From the NCBI GenBank assembly GCA_900552555.1, contig URZW01000002.1, forward strand, positions 82,002-146,001: a DNA stretch of 64,000 nt. The letters run 5' to 3'. Positions 15,684 to 53,183 of the stretch are shown here, one piece after another. The number at the start of each line of letters is the position of its first letter. Position 1 is the stretch's first letter. Source of the stretch: an uncultured Clostridium sp. (lineage in GTDB: Bacteria > Bacillota > Clostridia > TANB77 > CAG-508). The position numbers and the translations under genes were made by a program. Below the pieces are notes generated by a model. That model was not told where the DNA came from, searched no databases, and was given only the letters and a program-made list of their open reading frames with translations.

Positions 15684-15890
15684 AAAATAATTATTTAAAT
15701 ACCTGTGAATTATATTTTTCATATTTTTCTCGGGTTCCCGACATAACGTTAACAAATTCTAATGTAAATACTCAAACAATACCCGAATACAGGACCCTTT
15801 TGAGTATTTACTTAAGAATTTGTAACACTATTTTGGTCACATTCGAAATATATTCAAAATATAATTCACAGGTATTTAAATAATTATTTT
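15684..15890. mobile_element. MITE-like element (~207 bp) with ~32-bp perfect terminal inverted repeats (AAAATAATTATTTAAATACCTGTGAATTATAT). The whole element is an imperfect long hairpin
   Basis: Terminal inverted repeats read directly. About 90% identical, in inverted orientation, to 25018-25197. Confidence 0.75.
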
Positions 15891-25017: not shown

Positions 25018-25197
25018 GAATACCTGTGAATTACATTTTGAATATATTTCGAATGCGACCAAAATAGTGTTACAAATTCTTAGGTAACTGCTCTAAAGGA
25101 TCCTGCCTTCGGGTATTGTTAGAGTATTTACATTAGAATTTGTTAACGTTATGTAGGGAGCCTGAGAAAAATATGAAAAATGTAATTCACAGGTGTT
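25018..25197. mobile_element. Second copy of the MITE-like hairpin element (inverted relative to 15684-15890)
   Basis: About 90% identical to the reverse complement of copy 1. TIR ATACCTGTGAATTACATTTT/AAAATGTAATTCACAGGTGT. Confidence 0.75.
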
Positions 25198-25377
25198 TCC
25201 ATTATTATCATTATCTAATTAGGACATCTTTTTTATATTTAAAAAATCTCTTGATTTGAAATAAGAAATTATAGTATAATAAAAAGAAAGAAAATAATGT
25301 AAAAATAAAAAGTACTCATAAAAGAATAATAAGGCATCAAACCAAGTTTGCACATTAGGAAAGGAATGAAATTATAT

Positions 25378-29441: not shown

Positions 29442-30182
29442 ATGAGAAATATAAAATTAACAATAGAATATGATGGAAAAGACTTTAACGGCTGGCAGAA
29501 GCAACCAACAAAATTAAATATTCAAGGTACAATAGAACAAGCTATAAAAATAGTAACAGGCGAAGATGTTGATTTAATGGCATCAGGTAGAACAGATGCA
29601 GGCGTTCATGCATTTGGACAAGTTGCAAATTTTAAAACAAATTCAAATATTCCAATAGAAAAAATTCCAATAGCATTAAATTCAAATTTAAAAAAATCAA
29701 TAAGAATTATATCAGCAGAAGAAGTTGATGAACGCTTCCATAGTAGATTAACATGTAAAAGAAAAACATATAGATATGTTATAAATAATTCAGAATTTTC
29801 ATCAGCTATTTATAGAAATTTAGAAACCCACATACCACAAAAATTAGATGTAGAAAAAATGAAACATGCAGCAAAATATTTTGAGGGTGAACACGATTTT
29901 AAAGCATTTAAAGCAAGTGGAACAAGTAGTAAAAGTAGTGTTAGAACAATTTACAAAGCAGAAGTTTTTGAAATGCCAAATAACAGAATTTACATTGAAT
30001 TAACAGGAAATGGATTTTTGTATAATATGGTTAGAATTATTGCTGGTACATTAGTTGATGTTGGAACAGGAAAGATACAACCTGAAGATATAGAAAAAAT
30101 AATTGAGTCTAAAGACAGAAGCTTGGCTGGGAAAACATTGCAACCAAATGGATTGTATTTAGTTAAAGTAAATTATGAATAA
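29442..30182 (+). CDS. truA: tRNA pseudouridine(38-40) synthase TruA
   Basis: MRNIKLTIEYDGKDFNGWQKQ. Start taken at the ATG at 29442 rather than the upstream in-frame extension. Confidence 0.85.
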   Translation: MRNIKLTIEYDGKDFNGWQKQPTKLNIQGTIEQAIKIVTGEDVDLMASGRTDAGVHAFGQVANFKTNSNIPIEKIPIALNSNLKKSIRIISAEEVDERFHSRLTCKRKTYRYVINNSEFSSAIYRNLETHIPQKLDVEKMKHAAKYFEGEHDFKAFKASGTSSKSSVRTIYKAEVFEMPNNRIYIELTGNGFLYNMVRIIAGTLVDVGTGKIQPEDIEKIIESKDRSLAGKTLQPNGLYLVKVNYE

Positions 30183-30269: not shown

Positions 30270-30310
30270 AAAGACTAGAACATATAATTATAAAAAGTTC
30301 TAGTCTTTTA
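30270..30310. terminator. Bidirectional terminator (AAAGACTAGAAC...GTTCTAGTCTTT)
   Basis: 12-bp perfect stem between convergent truA and the XRE gene. Confidence 0.7.
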
Positions 30311-30544
30311 ATCGTCATCCAACTCATCAAACAAAGGACTATCATAAAAATCTTTTAGTTTTATATCAAGGCCTCGGCATATTCTAAGTATAGTCAATGT
30401 TTTGGGATTTATAAATTTTTTATTAACAATTCCTTCAAGTGTTGATTGTGTAATTCCACATATTGTTGAAAGCTTATTTATTGTGATATCTCGTTCATTA
30501 CAAAGTTCTACTATTCGATAACTAACAGCTGAAATTAAAGTCAT
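30308..30544 (-). CDS. XRE-family HTH regulator, divergent from adhesin-like gene A
   Basis: HTH_3 motif INKLSTICGITQSTLEGIVNKK. RBS AAGGTGG. Confidence 0.7.
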   Translation of the reverse strand: MTLISAVSYRIVELCNERDITINKLSTICGITQSTLEGIVNKKFINPKTLTILRICRGLDIKLKDFYDSPLFDELDDD

Positions 30545-30675
30545 TTTTCCACCTTCTTATGAAAAAAGTATATCAAAAAAATAAATATAAGATTAACTGT
30601 CTACAGGTGACAATAAAAAAAGTTATATAGTAAAATATTTGATAATATTAGAATAAAAACGAAGGAGAAGGTTTG

Positions 30676-32318
30676 ATGAAAAAGAAAAATATGCTGAAAA
30701 AAAGAATGGGATTACACTAGTAACTTTAGTAATAACAATTATTATTTTATTGTTACTTGCTGGAATTACAATTGCAACACTAGGAGGAGAAAATGGGTTA
30801 TTTGTTAAAGTAAAACAATCGAAAGAAAAATATTCAATATCAGAAGCAAAAGAAAAATTAGAATTAGCAATATCAACTTTACAAATTGAACAAGAGGGAA
30901 AAGGCGAAAATTTAAAAAAGGAAGATTTGCCAAAAATAAATGATGATGAAATAGATGTTAGGGATACATCCAATTTTCCAATTAAAGTAATATGTAACAA
31001 TTATGAATTTAACATAGACTCTAATTTTGTTGTTTCATATGTTGGAATAGCAAACGAAACAATTATTACATATACAACAGAACCAGAAGGTTATACCAAT
31101 AAAAATGAAATAAAGATATTAGTAAAAATAAAAAATTCCAAGGGAATAAAAACCATAGAATATCCTAATGATAACGATAAATTACTGGCAAATGGTCAAA
31201 CAGAAATAGGATTGGATTATAAGGTTACAGCAAATGGAACATATACTTTTAAAATAGTAGATAATGATAATAAAGAGACTAAAAAAGATATAGTTATTGA
31301 TAAAATTGATACAGTTGAACCAAAAGAATTTACACCAAGTATAGAAAATACAACAATGGAAGGATTTACAATAGTTGCAAATGCAGAAGACGGAGATGCA
31401 ACAAGAGAAAGTAGCAAAAGTGGAATAGAAAAATATGAATTTTATATTAACAATGTAAAATATGAAAGTGACACAAATAAATATATGGCAACTGGACTAA
31501 ATAAAAATACTAATTATAATGTATATGTAATTGCATATGATAAAGCTGGTAACAGTAAAAAATCAGAAGTAATTACTGCAAAAACATCATCTACATTACC
31601 TCCACCTGTGGCTAATATTACATTTAATGAAAATAATGCAACCAAAAAAGCTGCCGATTATCCATTATTAACAATGAGTGGAATGAAAAATTGTATTTTG
31701 GAACCTAATAAAGGAGAAGAAGTGACATTAGAAATTACAAGTAAAAAAAGTGATAATATAATTTATTATTATAGCGAAGATGGAGGAAATACCTGGAATG
31801 AATATACTCAGCCAGTAAAAATTAGTTATAATGGAGATAATTTAATAAAAGTAAAAAGTATGTACATTAATAATAATATAGAGTCAGAAGCTCAAGAGGT
31901 AAAAAAATATATATCATATGAAATTAATACAGAATGTACAGCATCAAATTCGTTAAAAAAAATCGCATATGATAAAAATATAAATTCCTATATGTCGATA
32001 TTATCATATGACGATATATATTTTAGAGTCAGTACAGAATGTTGGGGAAAGTATATAAATATTGACTGTAGCACACCGACACACGGATTTTATGGTTGGA
32101 TTTCATTGGGAAACAAAAATGGATTCTGGGATAATCCATTGGCTGGATACCTTGTAACTTTTACAGGGATAAGTGCACAAACACATTGTATTAGAAGTTT
32201 AAAGATACCAGAAAATTCTTTTTGGGGAGTATGTGAGGCAGGAACGTCTGGACAAGAGTTCAGGACATATGAAGTTTGGTGTGGAGAAGAAAATTTAACA
32301 GGGCAAATAAATAAATAA
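30676..32318 (+). CDS. Pilin-like large surface adhesin-like protein, paralog A (FN3-like domain, Cys-containing C-terminal domain). Currently out of frame at an A7 tract (30697-30703)
   Basis: ATG at 30676 with RBS AAGGAG. Adding one A gives MKKKNMLKKKNGITLVTLVITIIILLLLAGITI..., matching paralog B. About 270 aa at roughly 90% identity to B. FN3-like YNVYVIAYDKAGNSKKS. Confidence 0.6.
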
Positions 32319-32431
32319 CAAAAAGTAACCAAATCCAATAAAAAGCATAAAATATAGTAAAAACGATTAAAAATCAAAATTTTTAAACTTTATAGTTAAC
32401 CAAAAAAAGTTAACTTGAAAGGAGAAAAAGA

Positions 32432-33005
32432 ATGAACGCTTTACTAATATTTTTTGCTTTACCAATAGCAGTAATAATAATATCAATAGCACTACAAAAA
32501 ATCTTCAAATGTCCATTTTTAGTAGCAGCAATAATATTTGCAATATTCCTAATAGTAACATTTGTAATAGGAAATCTAAATTACTTAGTAGCAACAATAG
32601 CATATACAATACTAGCATTTATAACAGCAGTACTAACAAACATAATTTGCAGAATATTTAGAGAATTAGATAGGAGAGAAGGAGAAAGAGAATCAAGTTG
32701 TTGTAACAGAAGAAACAGAAATTCAAACAATAACAATAATGGAACACAACTATTATCAATAACTCGGAGACTGCTCAAACAACAATAATGGAAATTTATT
32801 AACAATAAGTAGTAATGGATGTAATGGAGTTGAAAATGACTTATTAACAATCAACACAAATTGTCCAAATAATAGCAATAATAACAGTTGTTCATGCAGT
32901 TGCAATACATCAAATGATTCAATAGCAGTTAGAGCAAATGTATTTCCAAATAATAATACAAATGGAAGAACGGGAAGTTTTTGTGGATGCTTTAGAAGAA
33001 GGTAG
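32432..33005 (+). CDS. Small 3-TM membrane protein with an Asn/Cys-rich repetitive C-terminal tail. The tail continues out of frame (+1) after the annotated stop at 32788
   Basis: ORF 32432-32788. Frame +1 from 32763-33005 encodes ...NNNNGNLLTISSNGCNG...CSCSC...CGC. 30-nt near-repeats encode NNG-x-LL-[ST]-I. Confidence 0.35.
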
Positions 33006-33273
33006 AAAATGTCGAATTTTGCGATGAAAAAATATTGCAAAGTTCGACATTTTGTAGTATTATATAAATACTTTAATTTTATTCAAATATTTATTCAAGG
33101 TCAAAAATCGATGACCAAAATTCCAAAAAATACAAAAAAGTAAAGAAGATGATTACAATAATAAAAGGAAATTAACTTTTAAATTAATATTGACAAAATC
33201 AAAAATGAATATTATAATAAAGGAGATGAAGTAATATAGAAATATTTACATATGGAGAGTATATAAAATATAG

Positions 33274-33693
33274 ATGTTTATTCAAAAAATGGTCAAAAAA
33301 AAAAGAAAGGATACAAATGAAATTATAGAAATATTAAACAAAGTAATTAAAAGTACTAAAGATGAAAATAAAGAAATGCTTAAAAGAATTATATTTATAG
33401 CTTTAGAAGAAAAGCTAGGATATAAGGAAACAATGGAAGTAATTGATAAAATAGATGGAGGTGAGGAAGAAATGTTAGCAATAGTAGATACAATACGCAG
33501 AGAAAATCAAATGTATATAAATATGGGAAGAAAAGAAGCAAAGAAAGAAGCAAAAAAAGAAATTAAAAACAAGCTATATAAAATAGCACAAAAGTTATTG
33601 GAAAGAAATACATCAAAAGAGGATGTAGCAGAAATAACAGGACTAAAAGAAAAAGAAATAGAAAAAGTATTAAAAATGGAGAAAATATTATAA
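33274..33693 (+). CDS. Rpn/YhgA-like (Transposase_31) C-terminal fragment
   Basis: KEDVAEITGLKEKEIEKVLK plus a Lys/Glu-rich helix matches the conserved C-terminal tail of Rpn-family proteins. The nuclease domain is absent. Confidence 0.4.
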   Translation: MFIQKMVKKKRKDTNEIIEILNKVIKSTKDENKEMLKRIIFIALEEKLGYKETMEVIDKIDGGEEEMLAIVDTIRRENQMYINMGRKEAKKEAKKEIKNKLYKIAQKLLERNTSKEDVAEITGLKEKEIEKVLKMEKIL

Positions 33694-33809
33694 AAAAACA
33701 CGAACAATGTAATTAGCCAAAAAGCCAAAGAACTACAAATAAAATTGCTTGATAATTTTACATTTTTATGTTAAACTAATAAATGCAAAACATTTTAGGA
33801 GGAATAAAA

Positions 33810-34706
33810 ATGTTAGAAATTATAGAAGATACACTAATAGATGCCATAAAACTATTACCATTTCTATTTATAACATATCTAATTATGGAATATATAGAAC
33901 ACAAAATGGGACATAAAACAAAAAAGGCAATAAAAAAATCAGGAAAATGGGGACCAATAATAGGAAGCATACTTGGAGCATTTCCACAATGTGGATTTTC
34001 AGTATCAGCAACAAATCTATATGCAGGACGAGTTATAACACTAGGGACACTAATAGCTGTATATCTATCTACATCAGATGAAATGCTACCAATATTTATA
34101 TCAGAAGCGGTTTCTCCAATAATAATATTAAAAATATTAGGAATAAAACTTATTATAGGAATGATAGCAGGAACAATAATAGACTTATTAGTACATATAA
34201 TAAAAAACAAAATAATAAAAAATAAAAAAATTGAAATAACAGTTGAAGAAGAAAATGATGAAGACGAAATAGGACATATGTGCGAAGAAGACCACTGTCA
34301 CTGTAATGAAAGTGGAATACTTAAATCAGCAATACATCATACATTAAGCATATTGTTATTTATAATAATAATAACATTTATTATAAATACAGTGGTACAC
34401 TTTGTAGGGGAAGAAACCATTGCAAGTTGGATATTAAATAAACCAGTAATTGGACCAATAATTGCATCACTAATAGGATTAATTCCAAACTGTGCGGCAT
34501 CAGTAATAATAACAAATATGTATTTAGAAAATGTTATTTCACTGGGAAGTATGATTTCAGGTTTATTAACAGGTGCAGGAGTTGGACTTGCAGTCTTATT
34601 AAAAACAAATAATAAAATTAAAGAAAATATAGGAATAATCACTTTATTATATGCAATAGGAGTTATATCAGGTATAATAATCGATTTAATAGGAATTGCA
34701 TTATAA
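33810..34706 (+). CDS. Two-repeat integral membrane permease (DUF318/ArsP-like) with a His/Cys-rich central loop (GHMCEEDHCHCNESG)
   Basis: Internal duplication with P-x-C motifs (FPQCGFSV, IPNCAASV) and an acidic/His/Cys loop. ATG at 33810 after AGGAGGAAT. Confidence 0.45.
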   Translation: MLEIIEDTLIDAIKLLPFLFITYLIMEYIEHKMGHKTKKAIKKSGKWGPIIGSILGAFPQCGFSVSATNLYAGRVITLGTLIAVYLSTSDEMLPIFISEAVSPIIILKILGIKLIIGMIAGTIIDLLVHIIKNKIIKNKKIEITVEEENDEDEIGHMCEEDHCHCNESGILKSAIHHTLSILLFIIIITFIINTVVHFVGEETIASWILNKPVIGPIIASLIGLIPNCAASVIITNMYLENVISLGSMISGLLTGAGVGLAVLLKTNNKIKENIGIITLLYAIGVISGIIIDLIGIAL

Positions 34707-34757
34707 TAAATCATAATAAAAAACTGCCAAAAGTAAATAACTAATGACAGTTTTTAT

Positions 34758-37064
34758 TTATTTATTCTTTTTATTTTTTAAATTAACTATAATAGCATCC
34801 TCATTATCAAATAAATAATTAGAATCTGTTGTATCAGTTTGAACAGGATTTATTTCATTTCTTTCATCAATAAAATCCAACTTTTTAGGATTGAATTTTT
34901 TTCTATTCAAACCATTTTCATTATCTTCAGTTTCAGTAGTAACACCATCGGAATATTTACCAAAATCATATATTTTTGTTTTTCTTGGTTCTTTATATTT
35001 AGATGCTAAATAATTAAATTTACCTGGACCAGCCATTGGTTTACCATTAGAACCTCTAATTTTATAAGCACAATCCTTTTGACCAAGAGTTTGTAATTTA
35101 CCAGGTTTAAAATATGGAGTAAATTTCCATTCAACACTACCATGTTTTGAATCATATTTCATCTTATCAAAATCAATAGAATTACCCATAGACCATTCTC
35201 TCTTTTGTCCAAATTCGCTACTCCACCATTCAAGTTCGCTAATTACTCCGCCACCTGTAAAGATTTTACTAGCGCAGTTTGATAATATAGTTTGTTTAGC
35301 GCCAGCTACATTTAATTGCTCAAGGTTTTGAGCAGATATAACAGTACCAACTTTATATTTCCTATACATTGTAAATATAGGTTCTGTTGCTTTACAAATA
35401 AAGTCAGGAAATTCATCAATGTATAAGAAGTTTGGAACTCTAGATTTTTCGCTTCCAGGTCTTCTTAAAACAGCATTTTGCATTGAAATTAAGAAGAATA
35501 GTCCAAATGCTTTATGGTTAGTAGCACCTAAATCACCACGTCTAGTACATATAAAAGTAATATCTCCATTTGCTAAAGACTCGTCAAAATTAATATTGTT
35601 ATGTCTATTACATAAGATATTTTTTACACCAGGAACACGTAGTAATCTATCAAGAATGTCTGCAACAACAGAAATGAATGTTTCTGTATTATGTTTGTTA
35701 GGAGCGTCTTTGTAAAAGTTATTTTTAAAATAAACAAGTTGAGTGTTGTATTTTTCTTTTAGCTCTTCGTCATGTTCTAGAATTTTACACATTTTTTCTA
35801 TTAAATCGAAGTTTGTAAACATTTTTAGCATATCTTCTAAATTAGGTAACATACCTTCGTTCATTTTAGGGTACATTTCTTTCAATAATATAGAAATGTT
35901 TTCGATGGCTTGAATTACTTGCAATTCCTTGAAAAGTTCATATTTTGAAATATCAACCATAGCTTTCATTACTGAAGAAATAGTAATTGCTATTTTATTT
36001 GTATCATCATAAACAAATGGATTTAAGCCAATTGAATTTTTATCAGAAGGATCAATGACATTATAAGTTAAACCAAAATTTTTACATACATCCATCATAT
36101 GGTCTGAAATTTCTCTATCAGGAGACATAACAGTTACACCACAATTTTTATAAGTGATTTCAGAAGTAGAATCTAAAATCATTTTTTTCATATATCCTTT
36201 ATAAACATCTTCATTTCCAGAAGTTGGTGTCAACATATTTAAATTAAAATTAGAATTTAAATACTCATTATCATATGGTTTTGTTAATGTAGCAATTCCT
36301 GTTTTTAAAGCAGTAAATCCCATTTCTTTTGCAACTTCTCTAAAGAAAAATTTTTTTTCTAAATCTCTAGCTATTAAAGGTTCATAAACTAAAGATGTTT
36401 TTCCAGAACCAGATGCACCACATACAAACATTGATTGATATCTTGAAGCTTCTGGAATTGTTATTTGTTGAGAAGTTTCACTATTTTGACATAGGTATAT
36501 ATCACATGTATATGGTCCATGACCTTGTTTTTTATCAGATAAATCAATTCCTGCATAATCCCAAATAGATTGTTTCATATCTTTACTATCATTTACACCA
36601 AAATACAAGAAATTAAATATCTTTGGAATAACAAGTACCGGTACTAAAATAGTTAAAGATGTTAAAGCTGGACGAACTAGATCAGAAAAATCTGTAACTA
36701 AATCAACATATCCAGGATTAAATACAAGTAGTAACCATGCCCCCATATTAAGCCATTGAGTAAACATAGAAATTGCAATTATACTCAAACCAATTACATA
36801 TATATAAAATAAAGTAACTTTTTTACTTTTGGTTGATGCAAATTCAGATGGAATTGAAAAAGCAAATGCTAACATAGGACATGCAAGTGCTATTGTATAT
36901 TGAAGTGGTCCCCAATATGAATAAGAAACACCTGTAAATAACATTAATAACATTTCAGTGATTCTGTCAACTGCTATGTATACAGTTATAAGTGTTAATA
37001 TATATGTGGCAAAAGTGTTTCTACTAACTCCTAGTTTTTTTAAAAAATTGTCTATTATTTTCAT
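34758..37064 (-). CDS. Membrane-embedded FtsK/HerA-superfamily P-loop ATPase resembling type IV secretion VirD4/TraG coupling proteins (or VirB4). About 5 N-terminal TM helices
   Basis: Walker A VCGASGSGKTS, Walker B FLYIDEFPDF, then the pattern R..KVGTVISAQNLEQL...ILSNCASKIF. Strong RBS AAAAGGGG. Confidence 0.5.
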   Translation of the reverse strand: MKIIDNFLKKLGVSRNTFATYILTLITVYIAVDRITEMLLMLFTGVSYSYWGPLQYTIALACPMLAFAFSIPSEFASTKSKKVTLFYIYVIGLSIIAISMFTQWLNMGAWLLLVFNPGYVDLVTDFSDLVRPALTSLTILVPVLVIPKIFNFLYFGVNDSKDMKQSIWDYAGIDLSDKKQGHGPYTCDIYLCQNSETSQQITIPEASRYQSMFVCGASGSGKTSLVYEPLIARDLEKKFFFREVAKEMGFTALKTGIATLTKPYDNEYLNSNFNLNMLTPTSGNEDVYKGYMKKMILDSTSEITYKNCGVTVMSPDREISDHMMDVCKNFGLTYNVIDPSDKNSIGLNPFVYDDTNKIAITISSVMKAMVDISKYELFKELQVIQAIENISILLKEMYPKMNEGMLPNLEDMLKMFTNFDLIEKMCKILEHDEELKEKYNTQLVYFKNNFYKDAPNKHNTETFISVVADILDRLLRVPGVKNILCNRHNNINFDESLANGDITFICTRRGDLGATNHKAFGLFFLISMQNAVLRRPGSEKSRVPNFLYIDEFPDFICKATEPIFTMYRKYKVGTVISAQNLEQLNVAGAKQTILSNCASKIFTGGGVISELEWWSSEFGQKREWSMGNSIDFDKMKYDSKHGSVEWKFTPYFKPGKLQTLGQKDCAYKIRGSNGKPMAGPGKFNYLASKYKEPRKTKIYDFGKYSDGVTTETEDNENGLNRKKFNPKKLDFIDERNEINPVQTDTTDSNYLFDNEDAIIVNLKNKKNK

Positions 37065-38025: not shown

Positions 38026-39387
38026 TTAAAATTCTTGACAAGACAAATCTTCATCTGTACATTTAACTTCATATACATAAAAAGGAACAGATAAAGATGT
38101 CCCATCTAATAATGAAATCATTTTTGTATTCTGTGGTATTTTTACACTTTTTGCTGTTTTAGTACCGAATGTTTTATTTTCTGATAGCCTGTATAAGTAA
38201 TCAAATTTTATTAAATTATTTATATTTATTGATGAAAACATAGCCATACATCCATAACTAGAACAATCTGCAGTCCATGTATATAAGGTTATATATTTTC
38301 CCCAACACGCAGGATCTATCATTAATTTATTTAAATAGGAATTATCAGTATCACAATCAGCATAAGTTGTATAATTATTATCATATGCTTTTTCTGCTAA
38401 TGCATCTTCAGTCAATCCATCATCAGGTATCATAACTCCATTTAATGTTAAAGTTGGATAACCACCTTCTGTAGTTGTTACAGTTATTGTTGATGACTGT
38501 TTAGAATTTCCAGCTCTATCATATGCTTTAACATATACAGAGTAACTTGTCTTTTTAGTTAATCCTGTTACCTTAAAAATTTTTTGGCTTGACTCATATT
38601 TAGTATTGTTTACAAAAATTTCATACTTTTCAATTCCACTTTTTATACTAGTATCTGTTTCATCACCATCTTCAACATTTGCAACTACTGTAAATGCCGT
38701 TGATTTTATATTTTCTATACTAGGTGTGAAATCTTTAGGCGCAACGGTATCAATTTTTTCAATAACTATATCCTTTGTAGTTTCAATATTATCATTATCT
38801 ACTATCTTAAAAGTATATGTTCCATTTGCTGTGACTTTATAATCAAATCCAACTTCTGTTTGACCATTTGCCAATAATTTATCATTATCATTTGGGTATT
38901 CAATAGTTTTTATTCCTTTAGAATTTTTAATTTTTATTAATATTTTAACCTCGTTTTTATTAGTATAACCTTCTGGATCTGTGGTATATGTAACAATAGT
39001 TTCATTAGCTATTCCAACATATGAAATAACAAAATTAGAATCTATATTAAATTCATAATTATTGCATATTACCTTAACTGGAAAATTTGAAGTATCCCTA
39101 ACATCTATTTCATCATTATTTATTTTAGGTAAATCTTCTTTTTTCAAGTTCTCACCATTTCCTTCTTGTTCAATTTGCAAAGTTGATATAGCTAATTCCA
39201 ATTTTTCTTTAGCTTCTGATATTGAATATTTTTCTTTTGATTTTTTCACTCTAGCAAATAATCCATTTTCTCCCATTAATGTTGAAATTGTTATCCCAGA
39301 AAGAATTAACAAGATAATAATTGTAACAACCAACGAGACCAAAGTAATACCTTTCAAAGACTTTAAATTCGTTTTTAAATTTTTCAT
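38026..39387 (-). CDS. Pilin-like large surface adhesin-like protein, paralog B (intact). Non-canonical prepilin-like N-terminus, FN3-like domain, Cys-containing C-terminal domain
   Basis: MKNLKTNLKSLKG|ITLVSLVVTIIILLILSGITI. FN3-like YSVYVKAYDRAGNSKQS. RBS GGAGGA. Confidence 0.6.
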   Translation of the reverse strand: MKNLKTNLKSLKGITLVSLVVTIIILLILSGITISTLMGENGLFARVKKSKEKYSISEAKEKLELAISTLQIEQEGNGENLKKEDLPKINNDEIDVRDTSNFPVKVICNNYEFNIDSNFVISYVGIANETIVTYTTDPEGYTNKNEVKILIKIKNSKGIKTIEYPNDNDKLLANGQTEVGFDYKVTANGTYTFKIVDNDNIETTKDIVIEKIDTVAPKDFTPSIENIKSTAFTVVANVEDGDETDTSIKSGIEKYEIFVNNTKYESSQKIFKVTGLTKKTSYSVYVKAYDRAGNSKQSSTITVTTTEGGYPTLTLNGVMIPDDGLTEDALAEKAYDNNYTTYADCDTDNSYLNKLMIDPACWGKYITLYTWTADCSSYGCMAMFSSININNLIKFDYLYRLSENKTFGTKTAKSVKIPQNTKMISLLDGTSLSVPFYVYEVKCTDEDLSCQEF

Positions 39388-41854: not shown

Positions 41855-42012
41855 AGTATGCAAACTTAAAATATTAACTTCTGTTCTAATATTACTATTA
41901 GTTTTTAAATTAATACTTATGACTTTAAGTAAAAGCCACTAGAGTATCCGCCGAATTTTTCGATAACTCTAGACCTCGTCAACCACATTAAATAGTGGTC
42001 CTGGCGCTTGAA
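41855..42012 (-). ncRNA. glmS ribozyme: glmS ribozyme (GlcN6P-responsive self-cleaving riboswitch) in the glmS 5' UTR
   Basis: Minus strand reads A|AGCGCCAGGACC...GACGAGG-UCUAGAG-UUAUCGAAAAAUUCGGCGGAU-ACUCUAG-UGGC. Conserved core matches the consensus, and P2 shows compensatory base changes. Confidence 0.85.
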
Positions 42013-42117
42013 AAATAACTCCTTTCTTGATATTTTTATGCATCTTTCAATTTTACTTTATTATATTACATCAAAATATATTTTGGTGCAAGTGTTTTTA
42101 ATTATTTTTAAAAAACA

Positions 42118-49935: not shown

Positions 49936-50160
49936 ATGAAAACTATTAAAGGAATTTTTACAATATCCTTTTAATAGTTTTTTTAAATTTTTATTGATTA
50001 TAAATATTATATTAATGATTTTATAAAAGTAATAAAATGTTTTATAAACAAGAAAATATAAAATAATATAAAAGAAAATACACTTTTTATAAAACAAAAT
50101 TTGTATTTGTCAAATTAGATGATAAACTATAGAAAACTTAAGAAAAAGCGTGGTGAGAAA

Positions 50161-50778
50161 ATGATAGATAAAATCACAGAATTTCTAACCAACAAAATTA
50201 GAAAAGAGATGCCAGATGTAGATGATGAAAGAGCAGAAATTATAAACTATGGTCTTCAGATTTTAATAGGTGAAGTACCAAAAATATTTATAATGTTAGC
50301 TATTGCATATTTATTAGGAGTATTTAAACTTAGTTTAATAACATTCTTAACATTAATACCATACAGAGGGTTTTCTGGAGGATTTCATCTAAAGACTCAT
50401 ATAGGATGTATTATATCAACATGTACATTTTATTGTGGAACAGCATTGCTTGCTAAATATATAGTTTTAGGAAGTATTACAAAATATGTATCAATTATAT
50501 TATTAGCAATTTTTGGAATTATTATGATAAAACTATATGCACCAGCAGATACTGAAGATGTTCCAATAATAAGCCCAAAAATAAGAAAACAAAAACAAAT
50601 ATTATCATATATATCATTTATAATTGGTTTATTAATTGCATCTTTGATTAATAACAATATAATATCAAATATAATAATATTTGGATATTTAATGCAAACA
50701 TGTATGATAACAAGGTTAGCATATAAACTTACAAATAATAAATATGGCTATGAGGTTTATGAAAATGCTACAAATTAA
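50161..50778 (+). CDS. agrB: AgrB-family AgrD-processing membrane peptidase
   Basis: IINYGLQILIGE...RGFSGGFHLKTHIGCIISTC carries AgrB motifs including the catalytic His and Cys. Alternative start at 50119. Confidence 0.8.
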   Translation: MIDKITEFLTNKIRKEMPDVDDERAEIINYGLQILIGEVPKIFIMLAIAYLLGVFKLSLITFLTLIPYRGFSGGFHLKTHIGCIISTCTFYCGTALLAKYIVLGSITKYVSIILLAIFGIIMIKLYAPADTEDVPIISPKIRKQKQILSYISFIIGLLIASLINNNIISNIIIFGYLMQTCMITRLAYKLTNNKYGYEVYENATN

Positions 50779-50856
50779 TTAGTTAATATTAAAAATACAA
50801 AGCCGGCTGTATTTTTATATTATATAAATTTTTTTAAAACAAAGGAGGAAAACTTT

Positions 50857-50976
50857 ATGTTAAAATTATTAGCTAAAGTTGCAGAAAAATATGCAAAATC
50901 TACTAACACAGCTTGTGGGTTGTGGGTTATAATGCATCAACCTAAAATGCCAGCTAGTTTAGTAAAAAAAGATTAA
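50857..50976 (+). CDS. agrD: AgrD autoinducing-peptide precursor (39 aa)
   Basis: Perfect RBS AAAGGAGGAAAACTTT-ATG. Amphipathic leader MLKLLAKVAEKYAKS, core TACGLWVIM, conserved HQP-K tail as in clostridial AgrD. Confidence 0.65.
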   Translation: MLKLLAKVAEKYAKSTNTACGLWVIMHQPKMPASLVKKD

Positions 50977-51136
50977 TTTTAAATTGTTTTTAAACTTAAA
51001 TATGAGTAGTTCGACAATGCTTATATTTAGGGTACAATATACTTAATGTTATTTATAGACAATCCACTAAAAAAGGAACAGGTTACTGTTCTTTTTTTAG
51101 TGAGTAAATAAAAATGATAGAATAAATCTATCATTT

Positions 51137-52486
51137 TTAATAATATATTTCTAATTGTTGAGAAAAATATTTTCCATTTTTAGCTGTATGTAAATTAACA
51201 TTATTATTTTTCTTTAATATTTGTCTTATTTCCCATAAACCAAGACCAGTATGATTTTCTTTTCCAGTAATACCTTTATTAAATATTTGTTCTACATTTA
51301 CATCCTTATCTTTATAGGTATTTTCTATTAATATTATATTTCGATTATTTTTTGATTCATTCCTAAATACTATATTAATTTCTTTTTCATCACATTCTTC
51401 AGATGCTTCTATAGCATTATCTAATAAAATACCTAAAATTCTTGCAAATTCATAAACCTTCATATGTAAATTAGTTAAATCTAATAAAAATGTTAAGTTT
51501 ACTTTTATACCTTTTTCTTCAGCTTCACTATATTTAGATGTAAGCAAATTATATATTCCAGGGTTATTAATAATATCTGGATTTAAAAGATATAAATTAT
51601 TAACTTTGGAACAATCACTTTCAAGTTGAGAATAATATTTTTTTAAACCATCCATATCATTTGTTTTTATATATCCACCTATAGTTGTAACTATATTATC
51701 AAAATCATGTTTGAATCCTCTAACACTATCATGTAAAATATGTAATGTTTTATTATATTCTTCAGCACTTTCTAATTTTTGTGTAGTTGTTACTAATTTC
51801 ATTATTTTGGCTAAACTATAAAAACTTAAACTAAAATAAATCAATAAACAAATAAAATTAAAGAAAGTAAATTGTACGGGCAAAATATTTATATAATTTG
51901 AAGTTAAGATTCCTTGAATTATTATATATATTATGGCAAATAAAAAATTTAATGTAATAATAAATTTATTTCTTTTATCAATATTATCTAGAATTGTAAC
52001 ACTAATATTTTTATATTTTATAGCCATATTTAATAATAGAATTATCAAATATACAAGAAGTACAAAAGGAATTCTATAAATAGGAATATACAAAGCTTGC
52101 TCTAAAGTAATATTTAAAATTGATAAATAAGGATTGAATAACAAATTTACTACCAAATTAAATATTATACTTGGAAATATAGATGCTATAACTGATTTAA
52201 TTACCCCTAACTTAATTACAAAGTATAAAATCAAAAAAGCCGAAGAATAATTTAAAATAGTATTATATGGAGATGGCAGTATATACATTGAAATTATACC
52301 TATCACAGAAACTACAATTATATAAATAAATTTTTGTTTTTTATTACAAATTATATTAAAAATATTACATATTAAAGAAAAAGAAAGAGGAGTCTCTATA
52401 AATATAATTAAAAGAGATATACATATTTTTACAAGAAATTCATTCGGCGTACTCACTGCCAACCACAAATTATTCAGAATGTTCAT
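51137..52486 (-). CDS. agrC: AgrC-like (HPK10) membrane sensor histidine kinase
   Basis: 6-7 N-terminal TM helices. H-box RGFKHDFDNIV. C-terminal GHKL ATPase (GLGLWEIRQIL). Confidence 0.75.
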   Translation of the reverse strand: MNILNNLWLAVSTPNEFLVKICISLLIIFIETPLSFSLICNIFNIICNKKQKFIYIIVVSVIGIISMYILPSPYNTILNYSSAFLILYFVIKLGVIKSVIASIFPSIIFNLVVNLLFNPYLSILNITLEQALYIPIYRIPFVLLVYLIILLLNMAIKYKNISVTILDNIDKRNKFIITLNFLFAIIYIIIQGILTSNYINILPVQFTFFNFICLLIYFSLSFYSLAKIMKLVTTTQKLESAEEYNKTLHILHDSVRGFKHDFDNIVTTIGGYIKTNDMDGLKKYYSQLESDCSKVNNLYLLNPDIINNPGIYNLLTSKYSEAEEKGIKVNLTFLLDLTNLHMKVYEFARILGILLDNAIEASEECDEKEINIVFRNESKNNRNIILIENTYKDKDVNVEQIFNKGITGKENHTGLGLWEIRQILKKNNNVNLHTAKNGKYFSQQLEIYY

Positions 52487-53183
52487 TTTTCTTAACCTCC
52501 TCGATCAAACTTTTCTTGAATTTTGGACCAATATCACAAGTTGACCCATTATCAAAATACACAATATTACCTATAGAATCCAAATTAGCGATATTATTAA
52601 TATTAACAATAAAAGACTTATGAGCCCTAACAAAATTAGAAGGCAAAGAACACATAATTTTATTAAAAGAACTATAAGTTTCATAATCACGAGTTTTAGT
52701 ATGAAAAACCAACTTCATACCATCACGTTTAATATACAAAATTTCATTTTCATCAATAATAGTCTTTTTATTATCAACTTTAATATATCTTTTAGGGCGA
52801 CCATTAACATCCTCAAACAAACGAACAATAGTCTCCTCCAATCTATCAGAAGTTACCGGTTTAGCCAAGTAATCAAAAGTTTTAAATTTATATGCCATCA
52901 TAGCATATTCTAAATGAGCAGTAGTGAATATAAAATAAGTATCCTTATTACTTTCTCTAACTTTAGATGCGATTTCTAGACCAGTTTTATTTGATTTTAA
53001 ATTAATATCTAAAATTAAAACATCAGTTTTATTTTCATCAATATAATCTAATAATTCATCAACATTATTTGTACTGATACCAATCTTTGCATCATAATCA
53101 TGTTTTATAAATATAGTTTCAAGAATTTTTGAAAATTTATCTAAAATATTTATATTATCATCACAAATTGCAAAATTTAACAT
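52470..53183 (-). CDS. agrA: AgrA-like LytTR-family response regulator
   Basis: Receiver domain (ICDDN...LILDINL) plus LytTR DNA-binding domain. 17-nt overlap with the agrC start (translational coupling). Confidence 0.8.
   Translation of the reverse strand: MLNFAICDDNINILDKFSKILETIFIKHDYDAKIGISTNNVDELLDYIDENKTDVLILDINLKSNKTGLEIASKVRESNKDTYFIFTTAHLEYAMMAYKFKTFDYLAKPVTSDRLEETIVRLFEDVNGRPKRYIKVDNKKTIIDENEILYIKRDGMKLVFHTKTRDYETYSSFNKIMCSLPSNFVRAHKSFIVNINNIANLDSIGNIVYFDNGSTCDIGPKFKKSLIEEVKKNEHSE

Follow-up and report, generated by a model that had tools for sequence, protein, structure and literature searches.

A heritable OFF allele at a slippage-prone 5' poly-A tract of a predicted surface-protein gene in an uncultured gut Clostridium

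Paralog A, a gene for a predicted adhesin-like surface protein, lies in a 64,000-nucleotide (nt) stretch of an uncultured Clostridium sp. genome (contig URZW01000002.1, positions 82,002 to 146,001, forward strand), referred to here as the window. In the window the gene carries a genuine, heritable OFF allele of the slippage type, in which a homopolymer of seven adenines (A7) near the 5' end puts the start codon out of frame with an otherwise open gene body, and the same tract is found at both in-frame and out-of-frame lengths among related strains. We regard it as about an even call that an OFF allele at this slippage-prone 5' tract forms part of an ON/OFF switch that works at a low rate, may be reversible and controls a dispensable surface protein.

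Frameshift in paralog A and its polymorphism among strains

The Shine-Dalgarno motif AAGGAG (30662..30667, forward strand) stands 8 nt 5' of the start codon and is kept in all related loci. The ATG opens a frame-0 stub (30676..30720, forward strand) that reads 14 codons, MKKKNMLKKRMGLH, and then meets TAG at 30718-30720. Within the stub lies the A7 homopolymer (30697..30703, forward strand), exactly 7 nt long and coding for lysine residues of the leader. The body of paralog A (30708..32318, forward strand) occupies the -1 frame relative to the ATG and is fully open; one A added to the tract gives a continuous open reading frame (ORF) of 547 amino acids (aa) that starts with MKKKNMLKKKNGITLVTLVITIIILLLLAGITI and ends at 32318. 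The first-pass annotation had described the ATG at 30676, the AAGGAG motif, the A7 tract, the stop after 14 codons and the joining of the start codon to the 522-aa ORF by a single added A, and all of these were confirmed by direct reading and by script. In the frame of the paralog A ORF, ATG, GTG and TTG are absent from the upstream stop until a TTG at 30750. Rescue of the ORF by an alternative start was ruled out, and the A7 allele yields no leader-bearing protein by ordinary translation, because this earliest possible start lies inside the hydrophobic transmembrane (TM) helix. Taken by itself the tract does not exceed chance expectation, the window holding 89 A7 runs and 18 A8 runs; what stands above chance is its place in an otherwise open frame of 522 codons, at 26.5% GC, together with its polymorphism among strains.

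The compared loci are all syntenic (truA, a helix-turn-helix (HTH) gene, gene A, DUF2651 and onward). Between the flanking CT and GAA, the tract region measures 6, 7, 8 or 9 nt in strains that are 96-99.7% identical. Three of its states are in frame: CTG followed by A8 (P0122, 547 aa, on 18 contigs from at least 10 sequencing runs), CTG followed by A7GG, where a G interrupts the tract (P0124), and CT followed by A6, with one lysine fewer (P0001, 16 contigs). Two are out of frame, namely CTG followed by A7, the allele of the window (P0121), and CT followed by A7, which is found as P0125 (loci L026-L031) in at least six runs and also as P0123 at locus L010. Comparison of tract length with related strains, proposed by the first-pass annotation, accordingly returned a polymorphism with in-frame and out-of-frame lengths both present, and the A8 in-frame allele it had predicted occurs in nature, in the closest strains.

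At least two independent OFF events took place at the tract, on different haplotypes and in opposite directions (loss of one A from A8 and gain of one A by A6), and these two homoplastic events give modest support for recurrent frameshifting. In-frame alleles are the majority, at about two thirds, with approximately 21 of 64 contigs OFF for paralog A; these contig counts are clonally related and hence not independent. A pattern scan of metagenome contigs had as its sole return the contig already known as L010. Gene calls starting inside the TM helix occur, among 131 family proteins, in the paralog A ortholog group only. One such call, P0018, was considered as an OFF allele and is a contig-edge truncation; it was not counted.

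At the 3' end of the gene, three copies of AAAT (32305-32316, forward strand) span the paralog A stop codon in the window and in the CTG lineage. The CTA lineage, with P0001-type alleles, has two copies, which changes the C-terminal tail before the stop from QINK to QINNKK.

A homopolymer sequencing or assembly error over a true A8 genome, an alternative that the first-pass annotation had itself raised, is very improbable and was rejected. Homopolymers are error-prone on some platforms, but the identical A7 was recovered in at least four independent human-gut metagenome runs, which belong to different projects, and one run gave it in two separate assemblies, across 2.4-21.6 kb of sequence otherwise 99.6-100% identical to the window. 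P0121, the 522-aa product of the A7 allele, is present on eight contigs from ERR1190956 (ENA and Logan assemblies), ERR11569892 and SRR13336919, and locus L018 from SAMN08335057 is a further A7 carrier, with a scaffold match of 5.1 kb that is 100% identical to the window. The DNA flanking the A7 is 100% identical to the window in both ERR1190956 assemblies and in ERR11569892 (7.5 kb), and 99.6% identical in SRR13336919. Moreover, A8 alleles were correctly assembled in 18 other contigs, and other A7, A8 and A10 runs are reproducible across assemblies. The A7 is thus not an artefact, because the same allele recurs across independent runs and assemblers. As regards annotation, public metagenome-assembled genomes (MAGs) list a truncated call of 522 aa that represents a real allele, and no silent correction is warranted.

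In L018, positions 1-51, at the scaffold end, are unrelated to the window; the join falls at 30686, 11 nt upstream of the tract, and yields a spurious open call of 560 aa. These first 51 nt are probably a contig-end artefact; less probably, the gene has undergone a structural change near its 5' end.

Length variation at the tract was set against a control set of 26 coding A/T runs of at least 7 nt, located between 20.7 and 42.4 kb and followed in as many as 16 strains (93-99.7% identity). Apart from alignment-edge artefacts, length changed in one of the 26, the 5' tract of paralog A, while an A8 (31955-31962) and three A7 runs within the same gene are invariant across strains. Approximately 7 of 20 intergenic runs vary in length among strains, which means that slippage can be seen where nothing constrains it. 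Paralog B (38026..39387, reverse strand) is intact at 453 aa; its leader reads MKNLKTNLKSLKG and contains no A-run above 5. Its 453-aa form is present in 66 of 67 contigs, against paralog A being OFF in 21 of 64. A contig-level Fisher test of intactness in A versus B returned p = 6e-7, a value discounted for the clonal relatedness of the contigs. Since about one third of contigs are OFF for paralog A with the neighbouring paralog B intact, host- or phage-driven selection on paralog A alone is suggested.

A reversible switch, gene loss and other explanations

A one-base length change in the poly-A (Lys) run of the leader puts the ATG out of frame with the gene body. Translation is cut off at 14 codons, and the strain is predicted to make neither a membrane-anchored nor an exported form of the protein. 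If the tract acts as a switch, it would function as a slipped-strand mutational switch at the population level, OFF having been reached once by -1 and once by +1; the window strain is OFF, and gain of one A would turn it ON, in the way described for Paenibacillus flgG and Bacillus subtilis swrA. Switching is probably infrequent, given that OFF persists stably from host to host. Slippage as the mechanism, reversibility, a surface location of the product and selection for the OFF state are what we infer for this allele. The first-pass annotation had proposed phase variation by slipped-strand mispairing; an ON/OFF polymorphism in tract length is supported, whereas fast reversible switching is not, the window haplotype being found with A7 only.

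The history of the OFF haplotype bears on this interpretation. P0121 and the ON allele P0122 show no differences over residues 50-455, the protein bodies agreeing from about residue 45 on, and the A8 strains differ from the window by 0-1 DNA differences over 30806-35788; the OFF allele is therefore without secondary decay, as protein body and downstream DNA match the ON allele. Upstream of this lies a recombination patch (30686..30805, forward strand) that covers the leader and TM codons and holds 11 substitutions plus the tract indel relative to the A8 strains. The N-terminal patch of the window is present in OFF loci only, and a gene-conversion donor for it was found neither among the 131 family proteins nor among all fetched loci. 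A separate lesion, a 2-nt (AC) deletion at 32079-32080 (L010, L011 and L016), removes the C-terminal ~62 residues and defines P0123 and P0124. It occurs with an in-frame 5' tract in P0124 and with an out-of-frame one in P0123; paralog A tolerates damage, because the deletion is found in the 5'-ON allele P0124 as well. In the lineage with this deletion, either the C-terminal domain is dispensable or paralog A is decaying.

The locus is a recombination mosaic: substitutions between near-identical strains cluster in two short patches, one at 29915-30140 (the 3' end of truA) and the other at 30686-30805, and L024 has the same OFF allele next to a truA patch that differs.

The tract was also compared with the coding habits of the genome, using the 48 genes of the window. 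The lysine codon AAA is used at 88%, and the longest coding run across these genes is 8 nt, a ceiling at which the A8 of the ON allele already stands. KKK triplets are interrupted by AAG in nine of nine cases (P = 3e-5 under the observed codon usage), and the genome appears to avoid coding runs of A9 or longer. Over-representation of the tract, or its conservation in orthologs, as expected of a contingency locus, was not found. The run is missing from most family members, hence there is no sign of selection for mutability, and it is probably a by-product of AAA-biased lysine codons in the n-region of a signal peptide, not an evolved device.

Several of these observations weigh against a switch at the tract. 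ON and OFF alleles are separated by the linked patch of 11 single-nucleotide polymorphisms over 120 nt and not by a single step, and the A7 state may have arrived by recombination instead of in-situ slippage. The window haplotype has A7 in every sample carrying it, at least four in number and from several hosts, with no reversion seen, and its N-terminus in frame (with A8 or an A5-type repair) is absent among ~15 billion proteins. The 48 genes contain 91 A/T runs of at least 7 nt, and 18 of them have one in the first 90 nt. In the wider family the tract is not conserved, leaders being basic but variable with no conserved poly-K. The OFF lineage P0123 carries a second frameshift, as in a decaying gene, and at the level of distinct variants the contrast between A and B (3/10 versus 1/13) is not significant. 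Much of this evidence also favours a plain loss of function, that is, an incipient pseudogene or a presence/absence polymorphism of an accessory surface protein without functional reversibility, to which we assign a substantial minority share of belief. Under it, the gene would be dispensable or disadvantageous in the gut, the frameshift would have struck a mutable run by chance, and the allele would have spread. The fixed A7 of the OFF haplotype and its unseen in-frame version speak for it, as do the second frameshift of P0123 at 32079-32080, the same C-terminal truncation in the otherwise ON P0124, and a tract that is ordinary for the genome; relaxed selection alone would likewise be expected to limit variation among coding runs to the 5' tract of paralog A. 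Against it, the window allele is otherwise intact relative to the ON allele over ~500 codons and 5 kb downstream, two of three independent inactivating events in the species fell at the 5' tract despite an equally long A8 and three A7 runs in the gene, and in-frame alleles still make up the majority of contigs.

Two further explanations would retain function at the locus by other means. Recoding, in which RNA polymerase slippage or a ribosomal -1 shift on the A-run yields some full-length protein, is improbable, and slightly more so than the recombination alternative below. A-runs do serve as slippage sites for RNA polymerase and ribosomes, and both OFF alleles, one needing an additional A and the other one fewer, could in principle be partly rescued by transcriptional slippage; yet seven A's are few for transcriptional slippage to be efficient, orthologs do not conserve the out-of-frame arrangement, most alleles being in frame, and the avoidance of coding runs above 8 nt suggests that slippage is a cost to this genome and not a device. 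Transcriptional slippage at a low level may occur, with no sign that it is programmed. Programmed -1 frameshifting was rejected as a candidate: read from frame 0, the AAAAAAG heptamer lacks the phasing that tandem -1 slippage requires, the RNA of 30660-30800 (from the ribosome-binding site to ~100 nt past the tract) folds like its shuffles (z = 0.08), showing no structure, and the second OFF allele needs the opposite shift. Recombination as the operative switch is likewise unlikely. It would exchange the 5' module (promoter, leader, TM segment and first ~760 nt) among alleles or paralogs, the A7 leader being a defective cassette end that could be swapped by recombination or inversion across an inverted repeat of 762 nt and 83% identity shared by paralogs A and B (arm 1, 30704..31465; arm 2, 38594-39355). 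In its favour, besides the repeat, the OFF/ON difference is confined to a discrete 120-nt patch, and family members are modular mosaics, P0002 combining a B-type leader with an A-like middle. Locus L025 (P0131) joins the B upstream region and first ~300 nt to the A body with a crossover at 30943-30967, agrees with the window at 100% identity to either side of that crossover, and matches the product expected of an inversion. L025 is nevertheless a single 2.5-kb contig at ~2x coverage whose junction lies in a 25-nt exact repeat, so that a small-k assembly chimera is possible; the reciprocal product, an A leader on a B body, is absent among 13 B variants on ~67 contigs, and long contigs all keep the parental A...B arrangement. 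A two-layer scheme, in which inverted-repeat recombination swaps promoter-leader modules between adhesin bodies in addition to the homopolymer switch, is held at the same low probability; the frameshifted leader would there be a silent expression end. Inversion of the Campylobacter fetus sap type is comparable in logic to such a scheme.

Comparable systems bring the proposed homopolymer switch into context. In the contingency loci of Neisseria, Haemophilus, Campylobacter and Helicobacter, slipped-strand mispairing acts in 5' coding repeats of surface-protein genes, and their tracts are typically longer, over-represented against genome expectation and conserved as tracts. Paralog A, a predicted surface-protein gene, resembles them in that a simple repeat within its 5' coding part toggles the frame, and departs from them in that its tract sits at the ordinary A8 limit of the genome and is missing from most family members. 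Closer in form is flgG of Paenibacillus glucanolyticus, where a KKK-coding run near the start codon is a reversible 5' hotspot between A8 and A7, reversion was shown in culture, and A7 made up 0.9% of the reads from wild-type cultures (PMC9941203); B. subtilis swrA and Leptospira fliM, cited in the same work, are also subject to 5' poly-A frameshifts (PMC9941203). In all three, as in paralog A, seven to eight A's lie near the start and a change of one A leads to a premature stop; in flgG the run moreover codes for consecutive lysines with A8 as ON and A7 as OFF, as in the window lineage. They differ in being motility genes with reversion shown, whereas paralog A encodes a predicted Ig-like surface protein known from assembled alleles of an uncultured organism. 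For the 7-nt tract of Mycobacterium tuberculosis glpK, an adaptive switch was deduced from homoplasy across 31,428 isolates, at ~3e-8 per generation (PMC10334774). Short 7-nt coding homopolymers, recurrent frameshifts and population-genomic evidence are common to both cases, but formal homoplasy statistics and a measured rate support the M. tuberculosis tracts, against two independent events for paralog A.

The mechanism is well known and the conceptual gain modest. Uncultured spore-forming gut commensal Clostridia are known almost only from MAGs, and searches for phase variation in them have mainly targeted invertible promoters; should the tract toggle in vivo, it would represent homopolymer ON/OFF variation of a surface protein in this group. 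The A6, A7 and A8 states at one site also provide an ON/OFF marker that can be scored directly in existing metagenomic reads.

Protein architecture and family

The N-terminus of paralog A, MKKKNMLKK(K)NG|ITLVTLVITIIILLLLAG, has a short, basic leader whose last residue is Gly and then passes into a hydrophobic helix of ~20 residues. The body continues from this GITLV... helix through a long helix and tandem fn3/Ig-like beta-sandwiches to a C-terminal domain. A Pfam fn3 domain scored 27.2 bits against a cutoff of 25. An AlphaFold (AF2) model built on a 20-sequence alignment (pLDDT 85) places a TM helix at residues 11-37, a long helix at 42-75 and serial beta-sandwiches thereafter, and the PDB structures that match it best are tandem Ig/FnIII arrays, among them the SiiE adhesin, fibronectin and titin. 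From these Ig/FnIII-like folds and the N-terminal layout, paralog A is predicted to be an adhesin-like surface protein with a pilin-like signal-anchor.

The first-pass annotation had described a prepilin-like N-terminus in common with paralog B; the shared leader and GITLV... helix layout hold, while the pilin glutamate and profile tests failed. Like type IV pilins, paralog A has a basic leader ending in Gly, a hydrophobic helix of ~20 residues and then a long helix, and the N-terminus of Geobacter PilA-N aligns in register, weakly (E = 0.47). Unlike them, it lacks the Glu at +5, the position being Thr in paralog A and Ala, Ser, Val or Thr in 109 of 109 homologs, and its body is a tandem beta-sandwich stalk, not a pilin head. 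The N_methyl and TIGR02532 hidden Markov models (HMMs) gave no match to paralog A, GspG reached E 0.002-0.08, far under cutoff, and pilus machinery (prepilin peptidase, assembly ATPase) was found in none of ~30 genes Pfam-scanned in the 64-kb window. The evidence does not place paralog A among the type IV pilins.

Homologs come from human-gut metagenomes and uncultured Clostridia MAGs only, with several copies per genome. An alignment-based scan of genome contigs returned relatives of at most 61% identity in other uncultured Clostridia MAGs, and a single-protein scan found none. Across the family the N-terminal ~300 residues are conserved, comprising the leader, the [G/A]ITL[IV]ALVITIIILLILAG helix, the long helix and two beta-sandwich domains, and the C-terminal modules are very different, including RCC1 repeats, F5/8 type C and laminin-G-like domains (loci L032-L055 among the relatives). 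Together these proteins form a modular family of surface proteins, so far uncharacterised, in uncultured gut Clostridia.

Gene neighbourhood and other features of the window

The window is ordinary chromosome of a spore-forming Clostridia bacterium. The locus is flanked on one side by pyrimidine-nucleoside phosphorylase, cdaA and truA, and on the other by DUF2651, an ArsP_2 permease, a TraG/VirD4-like ATPase, paralog B, and glmS with its ribozyme; farther out are an agr locus, yqfD, uvrC and RNase R. Divergent from paralog A and upstream of it lies a 78-aa HTH gene (HTH_26, Xre-type; 30308..30544, reverse strand), whose product is a possible local regulator of paralog A. The small HTH genes adjoining A and B show no detectable relationship to each other.

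Between the paralogs, a TraG/VirD4-like coupling-protein homolog (TraG-D_C, 34758-37064, reverse strand) encodes 768 aa, and 775 aa in other strains; near this gene, no other conjugation genes were detected. A small BofA-like gene and a 92-aa gene lie between it and paralog B. An A6 and an A10 run (33284-33304) at the 5' end of a 139-aa ORF (33274..33693) occur among strains as (6,10), (7,10) and (7,11), and the gene call shifts among strains to 139, 134 or 105 aa. The ORF has a weak likeness to the C-terminal part only of Rpn-family nucleases (TIGR01784, E = 0.001), and the variable stretch is probably untranslated or a gene remnant.

Elsewhere in the window, a secondary BLAST match revealed an inverted repeat of ~190 nt and ~90% identity (~25019-25208 versus 15687-15876), for which a gathering-threshold scan of Rfam returned no family. 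An ordinary glmS ribozyme/riboswitch (41862-42019, reverse strand; Rfam RF00234, 88 bits) precedes glmS, and an agr-type quorum-sensing cluster at 50119-53183 comprises AgrB, a GHKL histidine kinase and a LytTR response regulator.

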